A stretch of DNA of 64,000 bases from a virus (taxonomy: Duplodnaviria > Caudoviricetes), in the IMG/VR virus record IMGVR_UViG_3300025133_000020; one strand, given 5' to 3'. Positions 26,075 to 62,696 of the stretch are shown piece after piece. The stretch's first letter is position 1; each line of letters opens with the position of its first letter. Under the pieces are notes generated by a model. The model made no database searches. It saw nothing but the letters and a program-made list of their open reading frames with translations, and was not told where the DNA came from. The translations under genes and the position numbers were made by a program.

Positions 26075-26461
26075 GTGGCACAAGGCAAATATATAAATAT
26101 CGATTATCCGTTTAAGGATAGTGACAAGGGGTTTTTACTGCAACTGAACGATACAGATTCAGGGGCGATTAAAGCTGACTTAATGCACTTAATTCTGACC
26201 CAGAAGGGTCAACGGTTATATATGCCTGATTTTGGTACTGATTTAATGAAGTATATTTTTGAACCTAACGATGCTAAAACATTATCGGAGATAAAATTGG
26301 ATATTCAACAAACTGTAAAAAAGTACATTCCCAACCTTACTGTTAACGAGGTTGAGGTCAATCAAGAAACCAATAACGAACACAAAGCTACTATAAGAAT
26401 CGATTATACAATCACCGAAGATGTCTTCGTTGAAACAGACTTTGTGGTCATAAATATTTAA
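26075..26461 (+). CDS. Baseplate wedge subunit, gp25/GpW-like
   Basis: YINIDYPF, IKADLMHLILTQKGQRLYMPDFGTDL and YIFEPND are typical gp25-family motifs; GTG start. Confidence 0.9.
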   Translation: MAQGKYINIDYPFKDSDKGFLLQLNDTDSGAIKADLMHLILTQKGQRLYMPDFGTDLMKYIFEPNDAKTLSEIKLDIQQTVKKYIPNLTVNEVEVNQETNNEHKATIRIDYTITEDVFVETDFVVINI

Positions 26462-26559: not shown

Positions 26560-28566
26560 ATGGATTTATCAAGTAGTATTATGTCCGACATTACAGTGTA
26601 TATGAAGTACGCTAAATATGTACCCCACTTACAGAGAAGAGAAACTTGGGAAGAGTTGGTAACAAGAAACAAAGAAATGCACCAACGCAAGTATTCTCAC
26701 ATCGCTGACGAAATAGAAGAAGCCTACAAGCTGGTGTACGACAAGAAAGTTTTACCTTCAATGAGAAGCTTACAGTTTGGCGGCAAGCCAATCGAAATCA
26801 GTCCTAACAGGATTTATAATTGTGCGTACCTGCCAATAGACCACTGGAAAGCATTCAGTGAAACAATGTTCCTATTATTAGGCGGCACAGGAGTAGGATA
26901 CTCAGTACAACGTCATCACGTTGAACGCCTACCAGAAATAAGAAAACCTAACGCTAACAGACGAAGACGCTACCTAATCGGAGATTCGATAGAAGGATGG
27001 GCTGACGCAATCAAAATATTAATGAGAGCATACTTTGAAGGTATGTCAACTCCAGATTTTGATTTCTCAGATATACGTAAGAAAGGTGCCGCATTGGTTA
27101 CCAGTGGTGGCAAAGCGCCAGGACCGCAACCATTAAAGGATTGTGTTCACAACATCAGAAAGATTCTGGATACCAAAGAAGATGGTGACCAATTATCAAC
27201 ATTAGAGGTACATGATATTATCTGTTATATTGCTGATGCGGTATTGGCAGGTGGTATTCGTAGAGCAGCGTTGATTTCATTATTCTCAATGGATGATGAG
27301 GATATGCTTACCTGTAAATTCGGTAAGTGGTACGAGCTTAACCCACAAAGAGGTAGAGCAAATAATTCAGCAGTTATGCTTAGACATAAAATCACTGAAG
27401 ATAAGTTCTTCGATTTATGGAAGAAAGTAGAGGAAAGTGATGCTGGAGAACCAGGAGTTTACTTCTCAAACGATAAGGATTGGGGAACCAACCCATGTTG
27501 TGAAATAGGGCTAAGACCTAACCAATTCTGTAATTTGAACGAGATTAATGCTTCAAATATCACATCCCAAGCTGATTTGGAGAATAGAGTTAGAGTAGCA
27601 GCCTTCATAGGGACGTTACAAGCGGGTTACACGGACTTTCATTACTTACGTGATGTCTGGAAGCGTACAACAGAAAAGGATGCCTTAGTGGGTGTAGGAA
27701 TGACTGGTATCGGTTCAGGTGAAGTTCTTAAGTATGACTTAGCACTTGCGGCTGAGGCAGTTAAGGGAGAAAATGCTAGAGTCGCTAAGTTGATTGGTAT
27801 CAATCCAGCAGCTAGAACTACAACAGTTAAACCATCTGGAACCAGTTCATTGGTTCTTGGTACCTCTTCAGGTATTCACGCTTGGCACAATGATTATTAC
27901 ATTCGTAGAATCAGAGTAGGTAAGAATGAGTCAATTTATACGTATCTTCAGATATATCACCCAGAGTTGATTGAGGATGAGTACTTTAGACCGAACGACC
28001 AAGCTGTTATTTCTGTTCCTCAGAAAGCACCAGAGGGTTCAATCTTCCGACATGAATCACCAATGGATTTACTCAATAGAGTTAAGAAGTTCAATACTGA
28101 ATGGGTAGCTAATGGTCATATAGATGGTCAGAATACTCATAACGTATCGGTAACGGCATCCATCAAGAAAGAACCTGAGATGATTTCTGTTAAGGGTGAA
28201 GACGGTAAACCTATTAAGGGAGCCGAAGGTAAGGTTATTCTTGAACCTAAGAAGGATGAAGAGGGTAATATCATTTACAGAGTCAACGAGTGGGGCGCTG
28301 TAGGAGAATGGATGTGGGCTAACCGTGATACTTTCAATGGTATAGCAGTTCTTCCGTTCAATGGTGGAAGTTATATTCAAGCCCCTTTTGAGGACTGTAC
28401 CAAGGAAGTATACGAAGAAATGAGTAAGTCACTTCATAGTGTAGACCTTAGTAAAGTAATCGAGATTGACGACAACACAGATTTATCTGGAGAATTAGCT
28501 TGCAGTGGTGGTGGCGGTTGTGAGGTAGATATCGACATGTCTTCATTGTTAGAGGATAACTCATAG
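26560..28566 (+). CDS. nrdJ: Class II (adenosylcobalamin-dependent) ribonucleotide reductase
   Basis: VLPSMRSLQFGG, YNCAY, GGIRRAA, TNPCCEI, CNLNEI, TTVKPSGT and the C-terminal Cys pair ACSGGGGCE; no ATP cone. Confidence 0.92.
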   Translation: MDLSSSIMSDITVYMKYAKYVPHLQRRETWEELVTRNKEMHQRKYSHIADEIEEAYKLVYDKKVLPSMRSLQFGGKPIEISPNRIYNCAYLPIDHWKAFSETMFLLLGGTGVGYSVQRHHVERLPEIRKPNANRRRRYLIGDSIEGWADAIKILMRAYFEGMSTPDFDFSDIRKKGAALVTSGGKAPGPQPLKDCVHNIRKILDTKEDGDQLSTLEVHDIICYIADAVLAGGIRRAALISLFSMDDEDMLTCKFGKWYELNPQRGRANNSAVMLRHKITEDKFFDLWKKVEESDAGEPGVYFSNDKDWGTNPCCEIGLRPNQFCNLNEINASNITSQADLENRVRVAAFIGTLQAGYTDFHYLRDVWKRTTEKDALVGVGMTGIGSGEVLKYDLALAAEAVKGENARVAKLIGINPAARTTTVKPSGTSSLVLGTSSGIHAWHNDYYIRRIRVGKNESIYTYLQIYHPELIEDEYFRPNDQAVISVPQKAPEGSIFRHESPMDLLNRVKKFNTEWVANGHIDGQNTHNVSVTASIKKEPEMISVKGEDGKPIKGAEGKVILEPKKDEEGNIIYRVNEWGAVGEWMWANRDTFNGIAVLPFNGGSYIQAPFEDCTKEVYEEMSKSLHSVDLSKVIEIDDNTDLSGELACSGGGGCEVDIDMSSLLEDNS

Positions 28567-28590
28567 GGAAACCTAACAGTTAATAATGAG

Positions 28591-28619
28591 AAAGTGGTCA
28601 TCCGACCACTTTTTTTTTT
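28591..28619 (+). terminator. Rho-independent terminator after RNR
   Basis: AAAGTGGTC-ATCC-GACCACTTT plus a long T run. Confidence 0.85.
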
Positions 28620-28640
28620 GTCTTTTACTTTACTTCACAC

Positions 28641-28648
28641 TATTTATA
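28641..28648 (+). promoter_or_regulatory. TATTTATA motif upstream of HNH endonuclease 1
   Basis: Exact motif 25 nt before ORF 28674. Confidence 0.6.
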
Positions 28649-28673
28649 GTTATAATACTAAGATAAATGTGAA

Positions 28674-29510
28674 GTGATGAGTAAAAAAATAGATATGATA
28701 GATAAAAAATTTGGTAGGTTAACGGTTATTAGTGAGCATTCCAAAACTAGAAACGGGCATATACGATACGCTTGTGAATGTGAGTGTGGTAACAGTACCA
28801 ACGTATTAGGTACCCATCTTAGGCAAGGTAATACTATATCATGTGGGTGTGCTATACCTATAGGTAAAGCCAGAACTGATTGGACGGGGGTTGGTGAAAT
28901 GTCAGGCGCTTTTTGGGCTACGCATGTGGTTACTAGCGCTAGCGGTAATAAAGGTAGTAGGAGAGAATTACCATTAACGATAACAAAGGAAGATGCTTGG
29001 GATTTATTCTTAAAGCAGGGTAGAAAGTGTGCATTGAGTGGTATTGAATTGAAGTTTCCCGAAAGACATAATGATAGGTCGTGGACAGCTTCTTTGGATA
29101 GGATAGACTCGTCTGAGGGTTACATAGAAGGTAACGTTCAATGGTTACATAAGGACGTTAATATGATGAAACGCACCTACACCCAAGAACATTTTGTTAA
29201 AATGTGTGAATTGATTTCAGATAACTTAACTGACCTACCTGAAGAATCTAGCGTTAGAGGTAAATTAGTGCATCTTGCGTCAATCACGTATTTACATGGT
29301 TTAATATTTGAAAATTTCGAGGATTCGGATATGATAAAGGGTAAACTACAGAACGAATTGAATACACACTTAAATTTTGAGACTAAGATTGGTAATGTTA
29401 ATTGGGAAAATAGTATATTGAGTGGTGATATCTATTACAAACCAGTGGAAGGGGGTGAAAAATATATGGTATCAACGTTTACCGTTGTTAATACTGGGGT
29501 GATAGCGTAG
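28674..29510 (+). CDS. Free-standing His-Me/HNH-type homing endonuclease 1 with C-terminal extension
   Basis: N-terminal KFGRLTV...CECECG...LRQGNTISCGC Zn module; nuclease module CALSG...SLDRIDSSEGYIEGNVQWLHKDVNMMK; extra roughly 90-aa tail. Confidence 0.85.
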   Translation: MMSKKIDMIDKKFGRLTVISEHSKTRNGHIRYACECECGNSTNVLGTHLRQGNTISCGCAIPIGKARTDWTGVGEMSGAFWATHVVTSASGNKGSRRELPLTITKEDAWDLFLKQGRKCALSGIELKFPERHNDRSWTASLDRIDSSEGYIEGNVQWLHKDVNMMKRTYTQEHFVKMCELISDNLTDLPEESSVRGKLVHLASITYLHGLIFENFEDSDMIKGKLQNELNTHLNFETKIGNVNWENSILSGDIYYKPVEGGEKYMVSTFTVVNTGVIA

Positions 29511-29565
29511 CGGTGGGGCTTGTGAGGTAGATGTTGATATGAGTTCTTTATTGGAAGGAGAGTAA
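29509..29565 (+). pseudogene. Orphan duplicate of the RNR C-terminus (SGGACEVDVDMSSLLEGE*)
   Basis: Translates to a near copy of the RNR ending SGGGGCEVDIDMSSLLEDNS*; no start codon; overlaps the endonuclease stop. Confidence 0.85.
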
Positions 29566-29585
29566 ATATAGTATCATATTAAGTG

Positions 29586-29612
29586 AAAGGTGGGCTTGTC
29601 CCACCTTTTTTT
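29586..29612 (+). terminator. Rho-independent terminator after the RNR remnant
   Basis: AAAGGTGGG-CTTGT-CCCACCTTT plus TTTT. Confidence 0.85.
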
Positions 29613-29654
29613 GTGTTCTAACTATTTAGTTTTCGTAAATAATGTGTTAATTGA

Positions 29655-29661
29655 TATTTAT
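29655..29661 (+). promoter_or_regulatory. TATTTAT motif upstream of baseplate wedge gene
   Basis: GATATTTATT 18 nt before the ATG. Confidence 0.6.
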
Positions 29662-29679
29662 TACTAAGAACGAAAAACT

Positions 29680-31500
29680 ATGGCTCGAAAAATACCTTAT
29701 TTTGCCCGAAACTTTGCCGACATTAGAACCGAACTGGTTAATTATGTTAGGCAATACTACCCAGATATATTCAATGACTTCAACGATGCGTCCGTTGGTA
29801 TGATGCTACTGGAATTGAACGCTGCTACTGGTGACATGTTATCATTTCACACGGACAGAATGTTCCAAGAAACTCAAATTAATTACGCACAAGAACGGTC
29901 AAGCGTATTATCAATGGCTCGTACATTCGGGCTTAAAATTCCAGGTAAAAGACCATCAGTAAGTATAGTAGATTTCAGTGTAACCGTTCCAGTATTGGGT
30001 GATACGTGGGATATTAGTTACGCACCAGTAATTAGAGAAGGGGCACAAGTATCTGGCGCTGGAAAGGTATTCGAAACCTCAGATGATATAGATTTCTCAT
30101 CTCCGTTTGCATCAGGTGGTATACCAAATAGGTTAATTATACCTAATTTGGATAGTTCAAACAATATAGTTAATTACACCATAACCAAACGAGAGATGGT
30201 TATTAATGGTGTGACTAAGATATTCAAACGAGTGATGACGGAAAATGATGTAAGACCTTTCTTCGAATTATTACTACCTGAGACAAACGTTATATCTATT
30301 AATTCGATTGTTACACTTGAAGGAACCGATTTTACTACCACACCTACCATTGACCAATTTTTGGATAGTGAGTTAAGGTGGTTTGAAATGAACGCACTGG
30401 CAGAAGATAAGGTTTTTGTTAAAGATAATACACTTACCAGCGATAACACTTCAGTTGAGGTTGGTAGATGGGTTAAGGTAGACCAGCGATTTATTCGTGA
30501 GTATACCGATAATGGTTTTACAAAATTGATTTTCGGTGGTGGTTCCCAAGATATAGGGTCATTATGTGATTTCGATGTTGACGCAGCGTTGGTAAGTAGA
30601 ATCGGGGACTTCATTAATAATCTAAGTATGGGTACAACACCAAGCCCAAGCACTACTATGTTCGTAAGTTATAGAGTTGGTGGTGGTGCCGATACAAACA
30701 TAGGACCTAACGTTCTAACTACAGTTAATAATGTTAATATGTCCGTAAATGGGGTCGACTCAACTATAAATCAAGCGGTTAGAGGTTCATTGGAAGTTAA
30801 TAACCCACTACCAGCTTTAGGTGGTAAAGACGAACCATCAGTAGAAGAGATACGTAACTTAACACGTTACAATTTCGCTTCACAGGAGAGATGTGTAACA
30901 ATCAAGGACTACCAATCAAGAATTGCCTTGATGGATGGTGAGTTCGGGGTACCGTTCAGAACAGGTGTATTGGAAAATCAGAATAAGGTTGCGATTTATA
31001 TACTATCATTAGGTAGTGATGGGACGTTGACTAATCAGTCCACTAGCACGTTAAGACGTAATATAGCCACTTATTTGAGTGATTATAGGATGATGAATGA
31101 TTATGTGGAAGTAACTAACGGTCAAGTCATTAACTTAGCATTCGAATTGGGGTTATACATAGACAAGGAGTTCCCCCAAAGTCAAATCATAGCGGAATCC
31201 ATTAGTCAAATACAAAATTATTTTGATATCGATAATTGGGATATGGGTCAGAACATCTACATGAGTCAACTGATTGAGAATATCAATAATGTTGGTGGTG
31301 TATTAAACGTTATGGAGTTGAAAGTTTTCAATAAGGTGGGTGATGGATATTCCTTGAATCAAATAGCTCAACCATTATTGGATGAAGCCACAAAAGAGAT
31401 TGATTTGGCGCCTAACTACGCATTAATGGGTAGCCCTATAAGTATGTTTGAGATTAAGAGACCTAGCGTGGATATTCGCGTCCGTGTCAAGACTAATTAA
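29680..31500 (+). CDS. Baseplate wedge protein (T4 gp6 / baseplate J-like)
   Basis: YFARNFADIRTEL, FNDASVGMMLLELNA, SYRVGGG, GGKDEPSVEEIR, FASQERCVTIKDY and NVGGVLNV. Confidence 0.9.
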   Translation: MARKIPYFARNFADIRTELVNYVRQYYPDIFNDFNDASVGMMLLELNAATGDMLSFHTDRMFQETQINYAQERSSVLSMARTFGLKIPGKRPSVSIVDFSVTVPVLGDTWDISYAPVIREGAQVSGAGKVFETSDDIDFSSPFASGGIPNRLIIPNLDSSNNIVNYTITKREMVINGVTKIFKRVMTENDVRPFFELLLPETNVISINSIVTLEGTDFTTTPTIDQFLDSELRWFEMNALAEDKVFVKDNTLTSDNTSVEVGRWVKVDQRFIREYTDNGFTKLIFGGGSQDIGSLCDFDVDAALVSRIGDFINNLSMGTTPSPSTTMFVSYRVGGGADTNIGPNVLTTVNNVNMSVNGVDSTINQAVRGSLEVNNPLPALGGKDEPSVEEIRNLTRYNFASQERCVTIKDYQSRIALMDGEFGVPFRTGVLENQNKVAIYILSLGSDGTLTNQSTSTLRRNIATYLSDYRMMNDYVEVTNGQVINLAFELGLYIDKEFPQSQIIAESISQIQNYFDIDNWDMGQNIYMSQLIENINNVGGVLNVMELKVFNKVGDGYSLNQIAQPLLDEATKEIDLAPNYALMGSPISMFEIKRPSVDIRVRVKTN

Positions 31501-32436
31501 ATCAAACATTAATGTTGTTTTTAGTGATAACCACCTATTTATGATAAACGAATGACGATGAATTGTATTAAATGTGGTGGTAAGGTAACGAAGTTTGGTA
31601 AAATAAATAAGAGGCAGAGGTATCGATGTGGTAATTGTGATATTACGTTTACCGATACCTCTTTGATTAAAATTAAGGAGCGAAAGCTTAAATATGAAAA
31701 AATTGTAGATATGTATACCATAAGTGGTATGTCAACAACTGAAATAGGTAAGGTGTTAGGTACTTCATCTACGGTACCACAAAGAATATTAAAAGGTATG
31801 GGTATTACTAGAACTATAAGTGAAGCTAAGAAGGGTAAGTTAAGGGGTACTTCATTACCCACAGATAAAATAATAAGATTGTATTGCGAGGGTACTCCAA
31901 CAACAAAAATAGCTAAAGATTTGGGTTATTCGAAGACTTCTATTTTAAAAGTGCTCATGAGTAATAATATACCTAGAGATAACGAGTATGAATATCACCA
32001 CCCATATGATGACACTATAAAATGGTTATACATAGAAGGTAGCTCAATGTTAGAGGTGTCAAAACTACTTAAAATACCATACACCACCATTAATACTAGA
32101 TTACATAAGTTTGGTTTGGTTAGAACTGATGATAGATTTAGGATTGGTATGGATTACGATACTTATTTGGAAAATCTACCAGCTTATGATAAATATCGTA
32201 GTGATGTTAATAAGGTAACGAATGAGCAACCTATAGAGATATTAGATAATTGTGGTAAGCGTGGGTTATGCGGTGTGGATGGTGCATACCAATTAGACCA
32301 TAAGTTTTCTATCTTAGAAGGCTTTAAACAAGGTGTCGAACCAGAAGTTATTGGTAATATAGCTAATTTGGAGTTTATACCTTGGGAAGATAATCTTAGT
32401 AAGGGTGGCGACTGTTCCATCACTTTAGAAGAATTG
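31501..32436 (+). mobile_element. Homing-endonuclease cassette at the 3' end of the baseplate wedge gene
   Basis: Flanked by two synonymously different copies of R-V-K-T-N-stop (31483-31500 and 32437-32454). Confidence 0.68.
31536..31542 (+). promoter_or_regulatory. TATTTAT motif upstream of HNH endonuclease 2
   Basis: CCTATTTATG 9 nt before the ATG. Confidence 0.55.
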
Positions 32437-32454
32437 AGAGTTAAAACCAATTAA
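31552..32454 (+). CDS. Free-standing HNH homing endonuclease 2 (Zn ribbon + 3 HTH repeats + HNH)
   Basis: CIKC...QRYRCGNC Zn ribbon; three LY..G.S..EI helix-turn-helix repeats; YQLDHKFS...NLEFIPWEDNLSK nuclease; ends RVKTN*. Confidence 0.85.
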   Translation: MTMNCIKCGGKVTKFGKINKRQRYRCGNCDITFTDTSLIKIKERKLKYEKIVDMYTISGMSTTEIGKVLGTSSTVPQRILKGMGITRTISEAKKGKLRGTSLPTDKIIRLYCEGTPTTKIAKDLGYSKTSILKVLMSNNIPRDNEYEYHHPYDDTIKWLYIEGSSMLEVSKLLKIPYTTINTRLHKFGLVRTDDRFRIGMDYDTYLENLPAYDKYRSDVNKVTNEQPIEILDNCGKRGLCGVDGAYQLDHKFSILEGFKQGVEPEVIGNIANLEFIPWEDNLSKGGDCSITLEELRVKTN

Positions 32455-32504
32455 TAGTTGATTTAACGGAGCTTTAAATTATATTGATACAAAACTAATA
32501 AACT

Positions 32505-32885
32505 ATGGGATGTGGATGTAAAGGAGATAACAACTTCGAAATACCAGGAGCTAAAGAGGCTCATGAACCTAAAATAGGTTTAGACGTTAACACTATTGTT
32601 AAATGGGTGGTGTTCATTATTGTAACAATATTATCACCGATACTCGCCCCACCTATTCTGATTTGGGCACTATACAAAGGCGTTATCCAGAATGAAAGGT
32701 TGGATGCGATTCTAATGTTCAGGGCTATAGCTAGAGCAGCCAACGATATTTTGGAAGAAGAAGATGATTCGTTAGATGACGATGAAATTGATAGATTGGA
32801 TGAATTAGAGGTGGTAGAAATGGACGCTGACATCATGGATTTAATTAGAACGGCTCCAGTAGAAGAGTTACATAAGAATGGGTAA
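32505..32885 (+). CDS. Hypothetical membrane protein
   Basis: 126 aa; MGCGCK start, hydrophobic stretch VKWVVFIIVTILSPILAPPILIWAL, acidic tail. Confidence 0.75.
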   Translation: MGCGCKGDNNFEIPGAKEAHEPKIGLDVNTIVKWVVFIIVTILSPILAPPILIWALYKGVIQNERLDAILMFRAIARAANDILEEEDDSLDDDEIDRLDELEVVEMDADIMDLIRTAPVEELHKNG

Positions 32886-41221: not shown

Positions 41222-41878
41222 ATGCCTAAGAAATACAACCATAACGAGGAAGAAATCTGTAAGTTATACTTGGATGGGTTTAGTTTGCAAAAGATTGCGG
41301 ATAAATTCGATGTAAGTAAGATGCCGATACGTACAATAGTGAGTAATCATGGTATCCTTAGAGGTGGTACGAGTAATGGACAGAAGATAATCCTAACCAA
41401 AGAACAGGAAACTCGGATAAAATATTTATACTTAAATGAGTATTGTAGTGGTACGGAGATAGCTTCTAAAATGGGGTTAACTGCACCATTCGTTGATAAA
41501 TATTTGAGTGGTATTGACTATAGAAGAACTAAAGGTGAGGGTGCTTCTATAGGTTTGGTGAAAAGATATAGAGGGGTTAGATATGATGTATATTTAAACT
41601 CAGTAGATGAATATAAGCGATATAAATCTGACGTGTTGAAGGTGACTAATAAACAACCTATCGAAACTTTAGATAATTATAGTAAGCGGGGTGTTAGTGG
41701 GTTAGATGGTGCATATCATTTAGACCATAAATATTCCATATTGGAAGGGTTTAAGCAAGGTATTAACCCAGACATAATTGGTAACATAATTAATTTAGAA
41801 TTCATACCATGGGAAGACAACGTAAAGAAACGGGTCACATGTAGTATTTCTAAAACAGAACTTTTAAACTTAAACTAA
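41222..41878 (+). CDS. Free-standing HNH homing endonuclease 3 (2 HTH repeats + HNH), paralog of endonuclease 2
   Basis: C-terminal ~95 aa align closely with ORF 31552 (YHLDHKYSILEGFKQG...NLEFIPWEDN). Confidence 0.85.
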   Translation: MPKKYNHNEEEICKLYLDGFSLQKIADKFDVSKMPIRTIVSNHGILRGGTSNGQKIILTKEQETRIKYLYLNEYCSGTEIASKMGLTAPFVDKYLSGIDYRRTKGEGASIGLVKRYRGVRYDVYLNSVDEYKRYKSDVLKVTNKQPIETLDNYSKRGVSGLDGAYHLDHKYSILEGFKQGINPDIIGNIINLEFIPWEDNVKKRVTCSISKTELLNLN

Positions 41879-61859: not shown

Positions 61860-62696
61860 ATGGGCAAATATGTCAACTATAATGAAGATAAGACCATAAG
61901 TCATTACTTCAAAGATTTAAGAAAAGAAGACCTATTAACGAAAGAGGAAGAATTCTCATTAGCGTTAAGAATTAAGGATGGGGATACGAGAGCCATTGAT
62001 AAACTGGCAAAGTCTAATCTAAAATTCGTAGTATCAATCGCCAAGGAATATCAAGGTAATGGATTACCATTGAGTGACCTGATAAGTGAGGGTAATTACG
62101 GGTTAATTAAAGCAGCGCATAAGTTTGACCCTAACAAGGGGTTCAGATTTATTTCATACGCTGTATGGTGGATACGTCAAGCAATCATTCAATCGTTGAA
62201 TGACCATTCACGAACCGTGAGACTACCATCCAATGTTATAAACAAGATTACAAGCGTTAAGAAAGCTCTGGAAGCCTTCGAACAGATTAATGAGCGAGAG
62301 CCAGTATTTGGTGAGGTTATAAACGAGGACGGTGCCAAATTGGATATCAGTGTAGATAGTGGGTATTGTAGTTCACTAAACGATAGAGCTTGGGACGGTG
62401 AGGGTGACGAGTTGGGTGATATGTTGGAAGATGATGAAACTTACGAAGAAACCAAGTACACAGTAGATGATAGACTTAAAAACACACTTGAGGGTACGCT
62501 GAATAAGTTAACCAAACGAGAGCGTGATATTGTGAAGTGTTATTTCGGTATCGACACAGAATGTGAACCGATGACGTTAGAAGCGATTGGAGACAAATAT
62601 GAACTCACTAAAGAGCGTGTAAGACAGATAAAGGAGAAGGGAATTAGAAAGCTAAGACACAATGCTGGAGGTCTATTTTCGGTGATGAATGAGTAG
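61860..62696 (+). CDS. RNA polymerase sigma-70 family factor (regions 1.2-4, no region 1.1)
   Basis: LLTKEEE, NLKFVVSIAKEY, DLISEGNYGLIKAAHKFD, GFRFISYAVWWIRQAI, RTVRLP and TLEAIG...LTKERVRQIKEK. Confidence 0.93.
   Translation: MGKYVNYNEDKTISHYFKDLRKEDLLTKEEEFSLALRIKDGDTRAIDKLAKSNLKFVVSIAKEYQGNGLPLSDLISEGNYGLIKAAHKFDPNKGFRFISYAVWWIRQAIIQSLNDHSRTVRLPSNVINKITSVKKALEAFEQINEREPVFGEVINEDGAKLDISVDSGYCSSLNDRAWDGEGDELGDMLEDDETYEETKYTVDDRLKNTLEGTLNKLTKRERDIVKCYFGIDTECEPMTLEAIGDKYELTKERVRQIKEKGIRKLRHNAGGLFSVMNE

Follow-up and report, generated by a model that had tools for sequence, protein, structure and literature searches.

The 64,000-nt stretch of DNA analysed in this study, hereafter called the window, is a contig of a marine tailed phage (IMG/VR record IMGVR_UViG_3300025133_000020) that carries two nuclease genes, HNH1 and HNH2, behind a ribonucleotide reductase (RNR) gene and a baseplate wedge gene, respectively. 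Our main finding is that both most probably represent free-standing HNH-type homing cassettes located inside the 3'-terminal codons of these two genes, and that they probably home by gene-end replacement. Each cassette brings along a new end for its target gene and leaves the original terminal codons stranded behind the nuclease gene. As judged from the alignments described below, the cassettes sit inside a gene end, instead of between genes. A preliminary description, made from the letters of the sequence alone, had proposed the same architecture at both sites for two unrelated types of endonuclease, namely a recoded gene end, an own TATTTAT promoter, the endonuclease gene and the stranded original codons. 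The sequence, the open reading frames (ORFs) and the alignments place both cassettes where this description had put them, and the two nucleases indeed display no detectable sequence similarity to each other (BLASTP E=0.61).

Cassette 1 (28504-29508; 1005 nt) comprises a new RNR tail with its stop codon, a terminator, a promoter-like motif and the HNH1 gene. The RNR gene ends in ACSGGGGCEVDIDMSSLLEDNS followed by a stop codon. The replacement end itself, SGGGGCEVDIDMSSLLEDNS plus TAG, was mapped to 28504..28566 (+), since in a global alignment to L001, a related locus without the nuclease gene (an 'empty' allele), the gap opens here and the L001 gene end pairs with the downstream copy. A terminator scan detected a 12-pair stem followed by a T run at 28588..28615 (+), which is predicted to act as an intrinsic terminator that the cassette itself supplies to the rebuilt RNR gene and which is missing from the empty alleles. 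It is followed by a promoter-like region at 28629..28656 (+), with CTATTTAT at 28640 and a TATAAT ending at 28656 (sigma-70-like match 10/12); this cacactattta..tataat motif is also kept in the cassette of the related locus L087. The HNH1 ORF (28674..29510, +) encodes 278 aa, the ATG at 28677 being the probable start. The stranded resident RNR end, SGGACEVDVDMSSLLEGE plus TAA, is located at 29509..29565 (+) in the +1 frame after the HNH1 stop (29508-29510), the TAG of which overlaps the first Ser codon of the stranded end, and its 3' flank corresponds to the native RNR-baseplate spacer of the empty L001 allele. Behind this stranded end lies the native RNR terminator (29585..29609, +; terminator scan); L001, L081 and L082, all of them empty, carry the same hairpin 3' of their RNR genes. 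Comparison of the working and stranded RNR ends over 18 aligned codons revealed 6 identical codons, 8 synonymous ones (among them a Ser spelled TCT in one copy and AGT in the other) and 4 non-synonymous ones, besides a one-codon indel, at 70% nucleotide identity. The proposed synonymous replacement of the gene end thus holds insofar as the differences are mostly synonymous, but not for the 4 non-synonymous codons and the indel. Likewise, the designation of the target genes as essential is presumptive as far as the RNR gene is concerned.

Cassette 2 (31483-32436; 954 nt) consists of a new five-codon baseplate gene end with its stop codon, a promoter-like motif and the HNH2 gene. The replacement end, CGT GTC AAG ACT AAT TAA, occupies 31483..31500 (+), as indicated by the linkage of a CGN codon to filled alleles (i.e. 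those with the nuclease gene) and by the identity to the filled locus L086, which rises here. Right after the working stop codon comes a leader (31501..31551, +) with a short palindrome and T run and, at 31535, the promoter-like motif CTATTTAT, as recognised by motif enrichment. This leader is common to all filled alleles and missing from empty ones. The HNH2 ORF (31552..32454, +; 300 aa) has its own coding part up to position 32436. Beyond this point, its frame continues through the stranded end of the resident baseplate gene, AGA GTT AAA ACC AAT TAA (32437..32454, +), which provides the RVKTN codons and the stop codon of HNH2. The baseplate gene ends in ..RVRVKTN and HNH2 in ..EELRVKTN, each directly before the stop, and 4 of the 5 shared codons are spelled differently. 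It should be mentioned that in the filled loci L086 and L084 a GIY-YIG-like ORF (MSCGIYKI..) starts just past the stranded baseplate end (from ~8820 and ~8815, respectively), so that two different nuclease genes are stacked at the baseplate site of these loci.

Which of the two copies is the resident one was derived from a comparison with hundreds of related loci in IMG/VR. The closest relative, represented by L001 and L083, lacks both nuclease genes. When the window was globally aligned to it, the gene ends and spacers of this relative paired with the downstream copies in the window, leaving gaps at approximately 28513-29518 and 31477-32430. In L001, L081 and L082, the native spacer between the RNR and baseplate genes corresponds to the spacer that follows the stranded RNR end in the window and that contains the terminator hairpin and the promoter region of the baseplate gene. 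The stranded baseplate end plus its 3' flank is nearly identical to the native gene end in L083, which is empty. Because the ends and spacers of the empty alleles match the downstream copies, these comparisons indicate that the stranded copies are the resident ends, as had been supposed, and that the working ends arrived with the cassettes. The RNR gene, which is 91% identical to the L001 gene, is consequently a hybrid of a resident body and 20 last codons from the cassette; in the baseplate gene, similarly, the last 5 codons are derived from the cassette and the body from the resident. The presence/absence polymorphism was observed directly: L001/L083, L081 and L082 are empty, L086, L087, L084, L108, L144 and L162 are filled, and the filled L086 and the empty L082 even originate from one metagenome. 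Of 100 non-redundant baseplate loci, 7 carry the nuclease gene. A match of stranded copies and flanks to empty alleles was also observed for RNR loci of the podovirus type.

The resemblance between the two copies might also reflect nothing but chance similarity of short terminal peptides. This view can draw on site 2, where only five residues match and a plain local alignment gives a p-value of 0.035. A suffix-before-stop test gives a p-value of 0.0005 at this site, and the duplicate at site 2 is convincing only together with its relatives. At site 1, the local alignment of the RNR ends scores 71, and the best score obtained with any of 3000 shuffled tails is 44. The preliminary description had suggested searching for the terminus of the upstream gene 3' of free-standing HNH genes in general. 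This was done with the suffix-before-stop test, which is strict, for 62 non-redundant loci with homologous nucleases, and terminal duplicates with p-values≤0.001 were found in 13 of them where 0.06 were expected (17 of 62 at p≤0.01). The test was significant in the families of both sites, and the pattern is present in 13 or more independent loci. Together with the homology of the flanks to empty alleles, this leaves chance with a negligible probability; indeed, this explanation is refuted by the suffix test, by the alignment to the empty allele and by the contrast in RNR tail mismatches described below.

The duplicated ends belong to four targets: two RNR lineages, the baseplate gene and a gene for a small basic protein. 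HNH2 homologs were found behind the baseplate gene in L086 (94% identical), L084, L087, L108, L144 and L162, with stranded ends of 4 to 14 codons each. In L087, an HNH1 homolog (56% identical) resides inside an RNR gene whose product is 36% identical to that of the window, and a stranded SGGQCEITSL plus stop follows it. The junction falls at one position, just past the first tail cysteine, in RNRs sharing only 34-38% identity. Behind podovirus-type RNR genes, shorter HNH1 homologs continue in frame into a stranded ..GGSCEIVDLT plus stop, and other short HNH1 homologs are fused to a stranded ..ADKVKW plus stop behind a gene for a basic protein of ~100 aa. The fusions to ..CEIVDLT were seen in L190, L245, L205, L192, L195, L193, L196 and others, and those to ..KVKW in L223, L227, L228, L241, L240 and L226. 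At several of the podovirus-type loci, the ATG of the nuclease gene overlaps the TGA stop of the RNR gene.

The nature of the duplicates also bears on how they arose. Copies identical at the DNA level would have spoken for a simple target-site duplication, but the copies have diverged, and this divergence pattern excludes such a duplication. Another scenario is that a gene end was first duplicated in tandem and that a nuclease gene entered the spacer later, with L081 representing the pre-insertion state. L081 indeed contains two adjacent copies of the baseplate gene end with nothing in between. However, these copies differ at 5 of 17 bases and the upstream one has the cassette-type AAG ACG, so that they do not form a fresh tandem repeat. 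Moreover, duplicates are enriched specifically beside these nuclease genes at four unrelated targets, and the divergence is mostly synonymous, which implies that both copies evolved as working gene ends in separate genomes. A tandem duplication preceding the nuclease gene is therefore very unlikely. As L081 lacks HNH2 and has a working end with AAG ACG, immediately behind which come a remnant of the stranded type and the native flank, we read this locus as a probable footprint of cassette loss.

A group I or group II intron, or an intein, near the 3' end of the gene would make the stranded end a true second exon or extein. This possibility deserves attention because phage RNR genes often host introns and inteins (PMC3653736), and in the relative L081 this very RNR gene contains split inteins. 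In the window, however, the target gene and the nuclease ORF are set apart by stop codons, a terminator and a promoter-like motif, no Rfam intron match at E≤1 was obtained in 28300-32700, and neither a self-splicing RNA fold nor an in-frame intein was detected around the nuclease genes. Nor were introns found in L081, L086 and L144. Furthermore, an intron would not encode the amino acids of the downstream exon a second time, and we regard an intron or intein as extremely improbable.

If the cassettes home by gene-end replacement, the spelling of the working ends becomes relevant for immunity. In the baseplate gene, the Arg codon of the terminal (V/I)RVK is CGN in 7 of 7 filled alleles, but in only 3 of 71 empty ones, where AGR prevails (68/71; Fisher p=4.5e-8). 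In the stranded baseplate copies, this Arg codon is AGR, or one step away from AGR, in 6 of 7 cases. A comparable contrast was observed for podovirus-type RNR genes with respect to a 21-nt consensus: 45 of 62 empty tails had no mismatch, whereas all 10 filled working tails had 2-5 mismatches (p=2e-8). The stranded RNR copies at these loci have kept the consensus and are indistinguishable from empty alleles (p=0.45). Variant working ends are thus linked to the presence of the nuclease gene. This pattern is as expected if the nuclease recognises a conserved gene end and the cassette carries a resistant spelling of it, and on the basis of these sequence contrasts we consider the immunity step of the mechanism fairly likely. 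Six empty podovirus-type RNR alleles (L353, L358, L373, L367, L368 and L399) have working tails with 3 mismatches to the consensus. These variants could reflect natural resistance, or loss of the nuclease gene by recombination between the tail copies.

The clearest signs of mobility concern cassette 2. Between the window and L086, nucleotide identity amounts to 58-78% in the baseplate gene, 85% in its last 60 nt, 92-100% in the HNH2 cassette and 37-58% downstream; the cassette is hence more similar than its flanks on either side. In addition, contigs from a second study hold the HNH2 cassette at 95-97% identity, and the flanks stop matching at 31495 and 32465. These identity profiles point clearly to horizontal transfer of the HNH2 cassette, a conclusion that applies to HNH2 and not to HNH1. 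With regard to cassette 1, a co-conversion tract was looked for, but could not be resolved as the nearest empty relative is only ~83% identical.

Several observations weigh against homing by gene-end replacement as the explanation for both cassettes. Many HNH1 homologs are located behind RNR genes without any duplicate, and duplication is therefore not obligatory for the HNH1 family. The working RNR end of the window keeps GCT TGC AGT GG at the junction, which means that immunity would hinge on bases further downstream. The stranded copy of L144 also spells the Arg codon as CGC, and CGN is present in the three empty baseplate alleles included in the above counts. Furthermore, the filled alleles are phylogenetically related, and the statistical contrasts are not fully independent. 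HNH1 has an invariant Arg (R143) at the position where canonical HNH_3 proteins have the general-base His; the chemistry of HNH1 is therefore uncertain. No Pfam HNH family match was obtained for HNH1, HNH2 or 32 HNH1 homologs. Lastly, no contig joint that skips either cassette was found in the runs that contain the window strain, although contigs cannot show the absence of an empty allele of this exact strain.

Some of these observations would be compatible with a view in which the cassettes are relics of one-off illegitimate recombination, the nucleases being immobile or domesticated passengers and the duplicated ends by-products without a role in immunity or spread. The duplicate-free HNH1 homologs, the missing catalytic His, the lack of an empty allele of the window strain among the contigs and the fact that HNH1 of the window has no close relative (the best one is 67% identical, over the core) all fit this view. 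On the other hand, immobile relics do not account readily for an HNH2 cassette that is ~95% identical amid flanks of ~70% identity and that recurs in the contigs of a second study, nor for one junction that recurs in RNR lineages of 34-38% identity with a stranded copy matching the local resident variant, nor for the strong linkage of variant working ends to the nuclease genes. Both the relic and the tandem-duplication scenarios fit the transfer and linkage data poorly, and we consider relics unlikely, though less so than a prior tandem duplication.

Closer examination of the nucleases was consistent with their assignment to homing endonuclease families, to which both HNH1 and HNH2 would belong by their sequences. 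HNH1 is composed of a CapR-like zinc ribbon (E 0.0055), an HNH-like core (approximately residues 61-188) and a C-terminal extension with a gp25 fold. It matches the HNH/endonuclease profiles phrog_3322, phrog_374 and phrog_1035 with E-values of 1e-15 to 1e-21, its leads in the Atlas are HNH and Endonuclease_7, and the family core is conserved across 32 members, with N154, H159 and N163 being invariant. An AF2 model of HNH1 (pLDDT 84.5) gave weak fold matches to the PacI HNH (Z 7.0) and Gme HNH (Z 5.3) nucleases, while Foldseek of HNH1 on the PDB yielded no match at E≤0.001. HNH2 is built from a zinc ribbon, three resolvase-type helix-turn-helix (HTH) modules (Z 8.1; Pfam HTH families) and a C-terminal HNH domain, in which D249-H250, N272 and N281 are invariant within a predicted beta-beta-alpha unit. 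Its nearest Atlas clusters carry PF01844 HNH (score 0.92). The results of a fold search with the whole HNH2 model were filled by HTH matches, so that the nuclease domain was not probed by it, and a sequence search of solved structures gave no match for either nuclease domain.

The C-terminal extension of HNH1 (29241..29507, +; residues 190-278) adopts, in the model, the fold shared by gp25, TssE and the sheath C-terminus. VIA-align returned Z-scores of 9.9 (9f4b_AA), 8.9 (T4 gp25, 5iv5_BD) and 7.1 (phiKZ sheath C-terminus) for these residues, and the extension also folds like IraD. Weak sequence signals relate it to the sheath (BLASTP E=0.001, hhalign probability 7%, sheath-tail hidden Markov model (HMM) E=0.19), and a gp25 HMM did not match it. 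The fold speaks for an origin from a tail gene, and the extension may represent a captured fragment of one. An HNH1-like gene was found behind the sheath gene in none of 80 sheath loci, and an apparent HNH1-gp25 fusion in L143 turned out to be a tblastn read-through artefact.

The own promoter that had been ascribed to each cassette was traced to the sequence TATTTAT, which is present in both cassettes within CTATTTAT (28640 and 31535). Of the 28 occurrences of TATTTAT in the window, 13 are located within 120 nt upstream of a start codon, a zone that makes up 8% of the window. Often in the form of CTATTTAT, the 13 sites lie 12-76 nt upstream of gene starts (e.g. 794, 3553, 7623, 26051, 29655, 51463 and 62705). 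From this distribution, TATTTAT looks like a putative promoter element of the window phage itself. A sigma-factor-like gene is located at 61860-62696.

The window has a GC content of ~38%, all of its genes are on the + strand, and sheath, gp25 and baseplate genes are present. The genes around the cassettes start with the gp25 gene (26075-26461, +), followed by the RNR gene, HNH1, the baseplate wedge gene, HNH2, a small ORF and a structural gene of 1272 aa. The RNR gene (26560..28566, +) specifies a class II-type (NrdJ-like) enzyme, as judged by Pfam Ribonuc_red_lgC and RNR-II_ins_dom and by phrog_367 (E 1.9e-114). The baseplate wedge gene (29680..31500, +; gp6/J-like) was identified through phrog_219 and phrog_10646 (baseplate wedge subunit), and it belongs to a gp25-baseplate gene order that is conserved in more than 100 loci. 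A close relative among cultured phages was not present in the collection, the best match being a Microcystis phage RNR with 65% nucleotide identity. Within the RNR gene (27864-27906 and 28300-28322), contigs reach a very high depth and branch at ~27860-27906, with a joint 27899>28301. This suggests that a conserved RNR segment is common to many co-occurring phages and that relatives differ here by ~400 nt of the RNR gene. A third nuclease gene (41222-41878, +) encodes a 218-aa paralog of the HNH2 family. It is flanked on both sides by structural genes, at distances of 15 nt and 1 nt, and, being without a duplicated gene end, represents a classic intergenic insert; homologs in L165 and L180 share this context. 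In view of this paralog and of the duplicate-free HNH1 homologs, both nuclease families use both insertion modes.

How homing by gene-end replacement might proceed can be outlined as follows. During a mixed infection, the nuclease would cut or nick the conserved 3' end of the cassette-less allele. The filled genome would then act as the repair template from which the cassette is copied, with the gene body as left homology arm and the stranded end plus the downstream spacer as the right one, and the target gene would remain intact since the cassette supplies a gene end. The filled genome would be immune in two ways, as the insertion splits the old site and the rebuilt site is spelled differently, and the cassette would be inherited preferentially. 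As to the origin of such an arrangement, one-sided homologous repair combined with an illegitimate join on the other side seems probable, the donor having carried a nuclease gene just behind a homologous gene.

The principle is already known from fungal mitochondria, where mobile endonuclease ORFs (mORFs) form 'gene hybrids' in Allomyces macrogynus atp6 (cited therein) and in Glomus atp6, atp9, cox2 and nad3 (PMC3630166). As is the case for mORFs, the endonuclease ORF lies within the 3' portion of a protein gene, a C-terminal coding segment of foreign origin is in phase with the gene body at both sites, and the native C-terminus is pushed downstream, where it is closest to the native sequence of relatives; the ORF may also be in phase with a neighbouring coding sequence. 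The phage cassettes differ from mORFs in that the host is a tailed phage and not a mitochondrion, the nucleases are of the HNH type instead of LAGLIDADG or GIY-YIG, and the duplicates are very short (5-20 codons). They also appear as transcription units of their own, equipped with a phage promoter-like motif and, in cassette 1, a terminator, and it is the stranded end that is fused to the nuclease ORF, instead of the upstream gene. Moreover, population-scale data are available here that link variant ends to the presence of the nuclease. Our literature searches, which did not cover subscription journals, retrieved no phage account of a nuclease-linked gene-end duplication.

Among phages, the free-standing homing endonucleases of T4-like phages, such as SegF, SegG and MobE, are known for 'intronless homing' (PMC2988022). 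Shared features are phage-borne HNH or GIY-YIG genes outside introns, a presence/absence polymorphism between related phages, here at the same loci, and conserved target genes that include RNR genes. The T4 enzymes spread with co-conversion of flanking markers, and immunity is conferred by differences in the target sequence. The T4 examples are intergenic, with cleavage sites at distances of hundreds to thousands of base pairs, and the review makes no mention of gene-end duplication (PMC2988022). Unlike these, the present cassettes are inside coding sequence, and the neighbouring gene is altered in that its end is replaced and duplicated. Closer in this respect is the T4 mobA / gene 60 cassette with its 50-nt translational bypass insert, where a free-standing HNH gene is located in a critical coding region (10.1101/2022.08.31.505936; PMC2988022). 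There, too, extra sequence travels along and keeps the target gene usable, but the T4 gene is split and rescued by ribosomal bypassing, whereas here the rescue is by a respelled duplicate end. The gene 60 bypass insert is also said to protect against self-cleavage. In 'fractured genes', a free-standing endonuclease gene is found between the halves of a split intein (PMC2677866). Such genes were likewise found in phage-like loci of marine metagenomes, RNR genes being frequent among them, and the endonuclease gene resides within an essential coding region; there the protein is rejoined by intein trans-splicing, while neither inteins nor splicing are involved here. The RNR gene of L081 (1704-5707) is such a 'fractured gene'; it is interrupted twice by split-intein halves, and the halves of the second interruption enclose a free-standing ORF of 352 aa.

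If the proposed mechanism holds, it would add a third route for homing endonucleases, one that gives access to essential coding sequence without introns or inteins. It would also explain the variable last codons of otherwise conserved phage genes, for instance in the RNR tail, which is redox-active, and at the end of the baseplate wedge gene. Both annotation and phylogeny may be misled by chimeric gene ends and by nuclease ORFs with foreign tails, and the comparison yields candidate target sequences, namely the RNR tail-cysteine motif and the baseplate GTT AGR GTT AAA end. Whether terminus replacement is a general, so far undescribed homing route of HNH endonucleases in marine phages, with an arms race that diversifies gene ends and ORFs that pick up fragments of host genes, can be checked at large scale in existing phage metagenomes; at present, we put this forward tentatively, as a possibility that we rate below even. 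If true, the most conserved last codons of important genes would be targetable without an intron or intein, consensus targets and respelled immune variants would be the two sides of an arms race over gene ends, and the gp25-fold extension of HNH1 would be the fossil of a former host gene.

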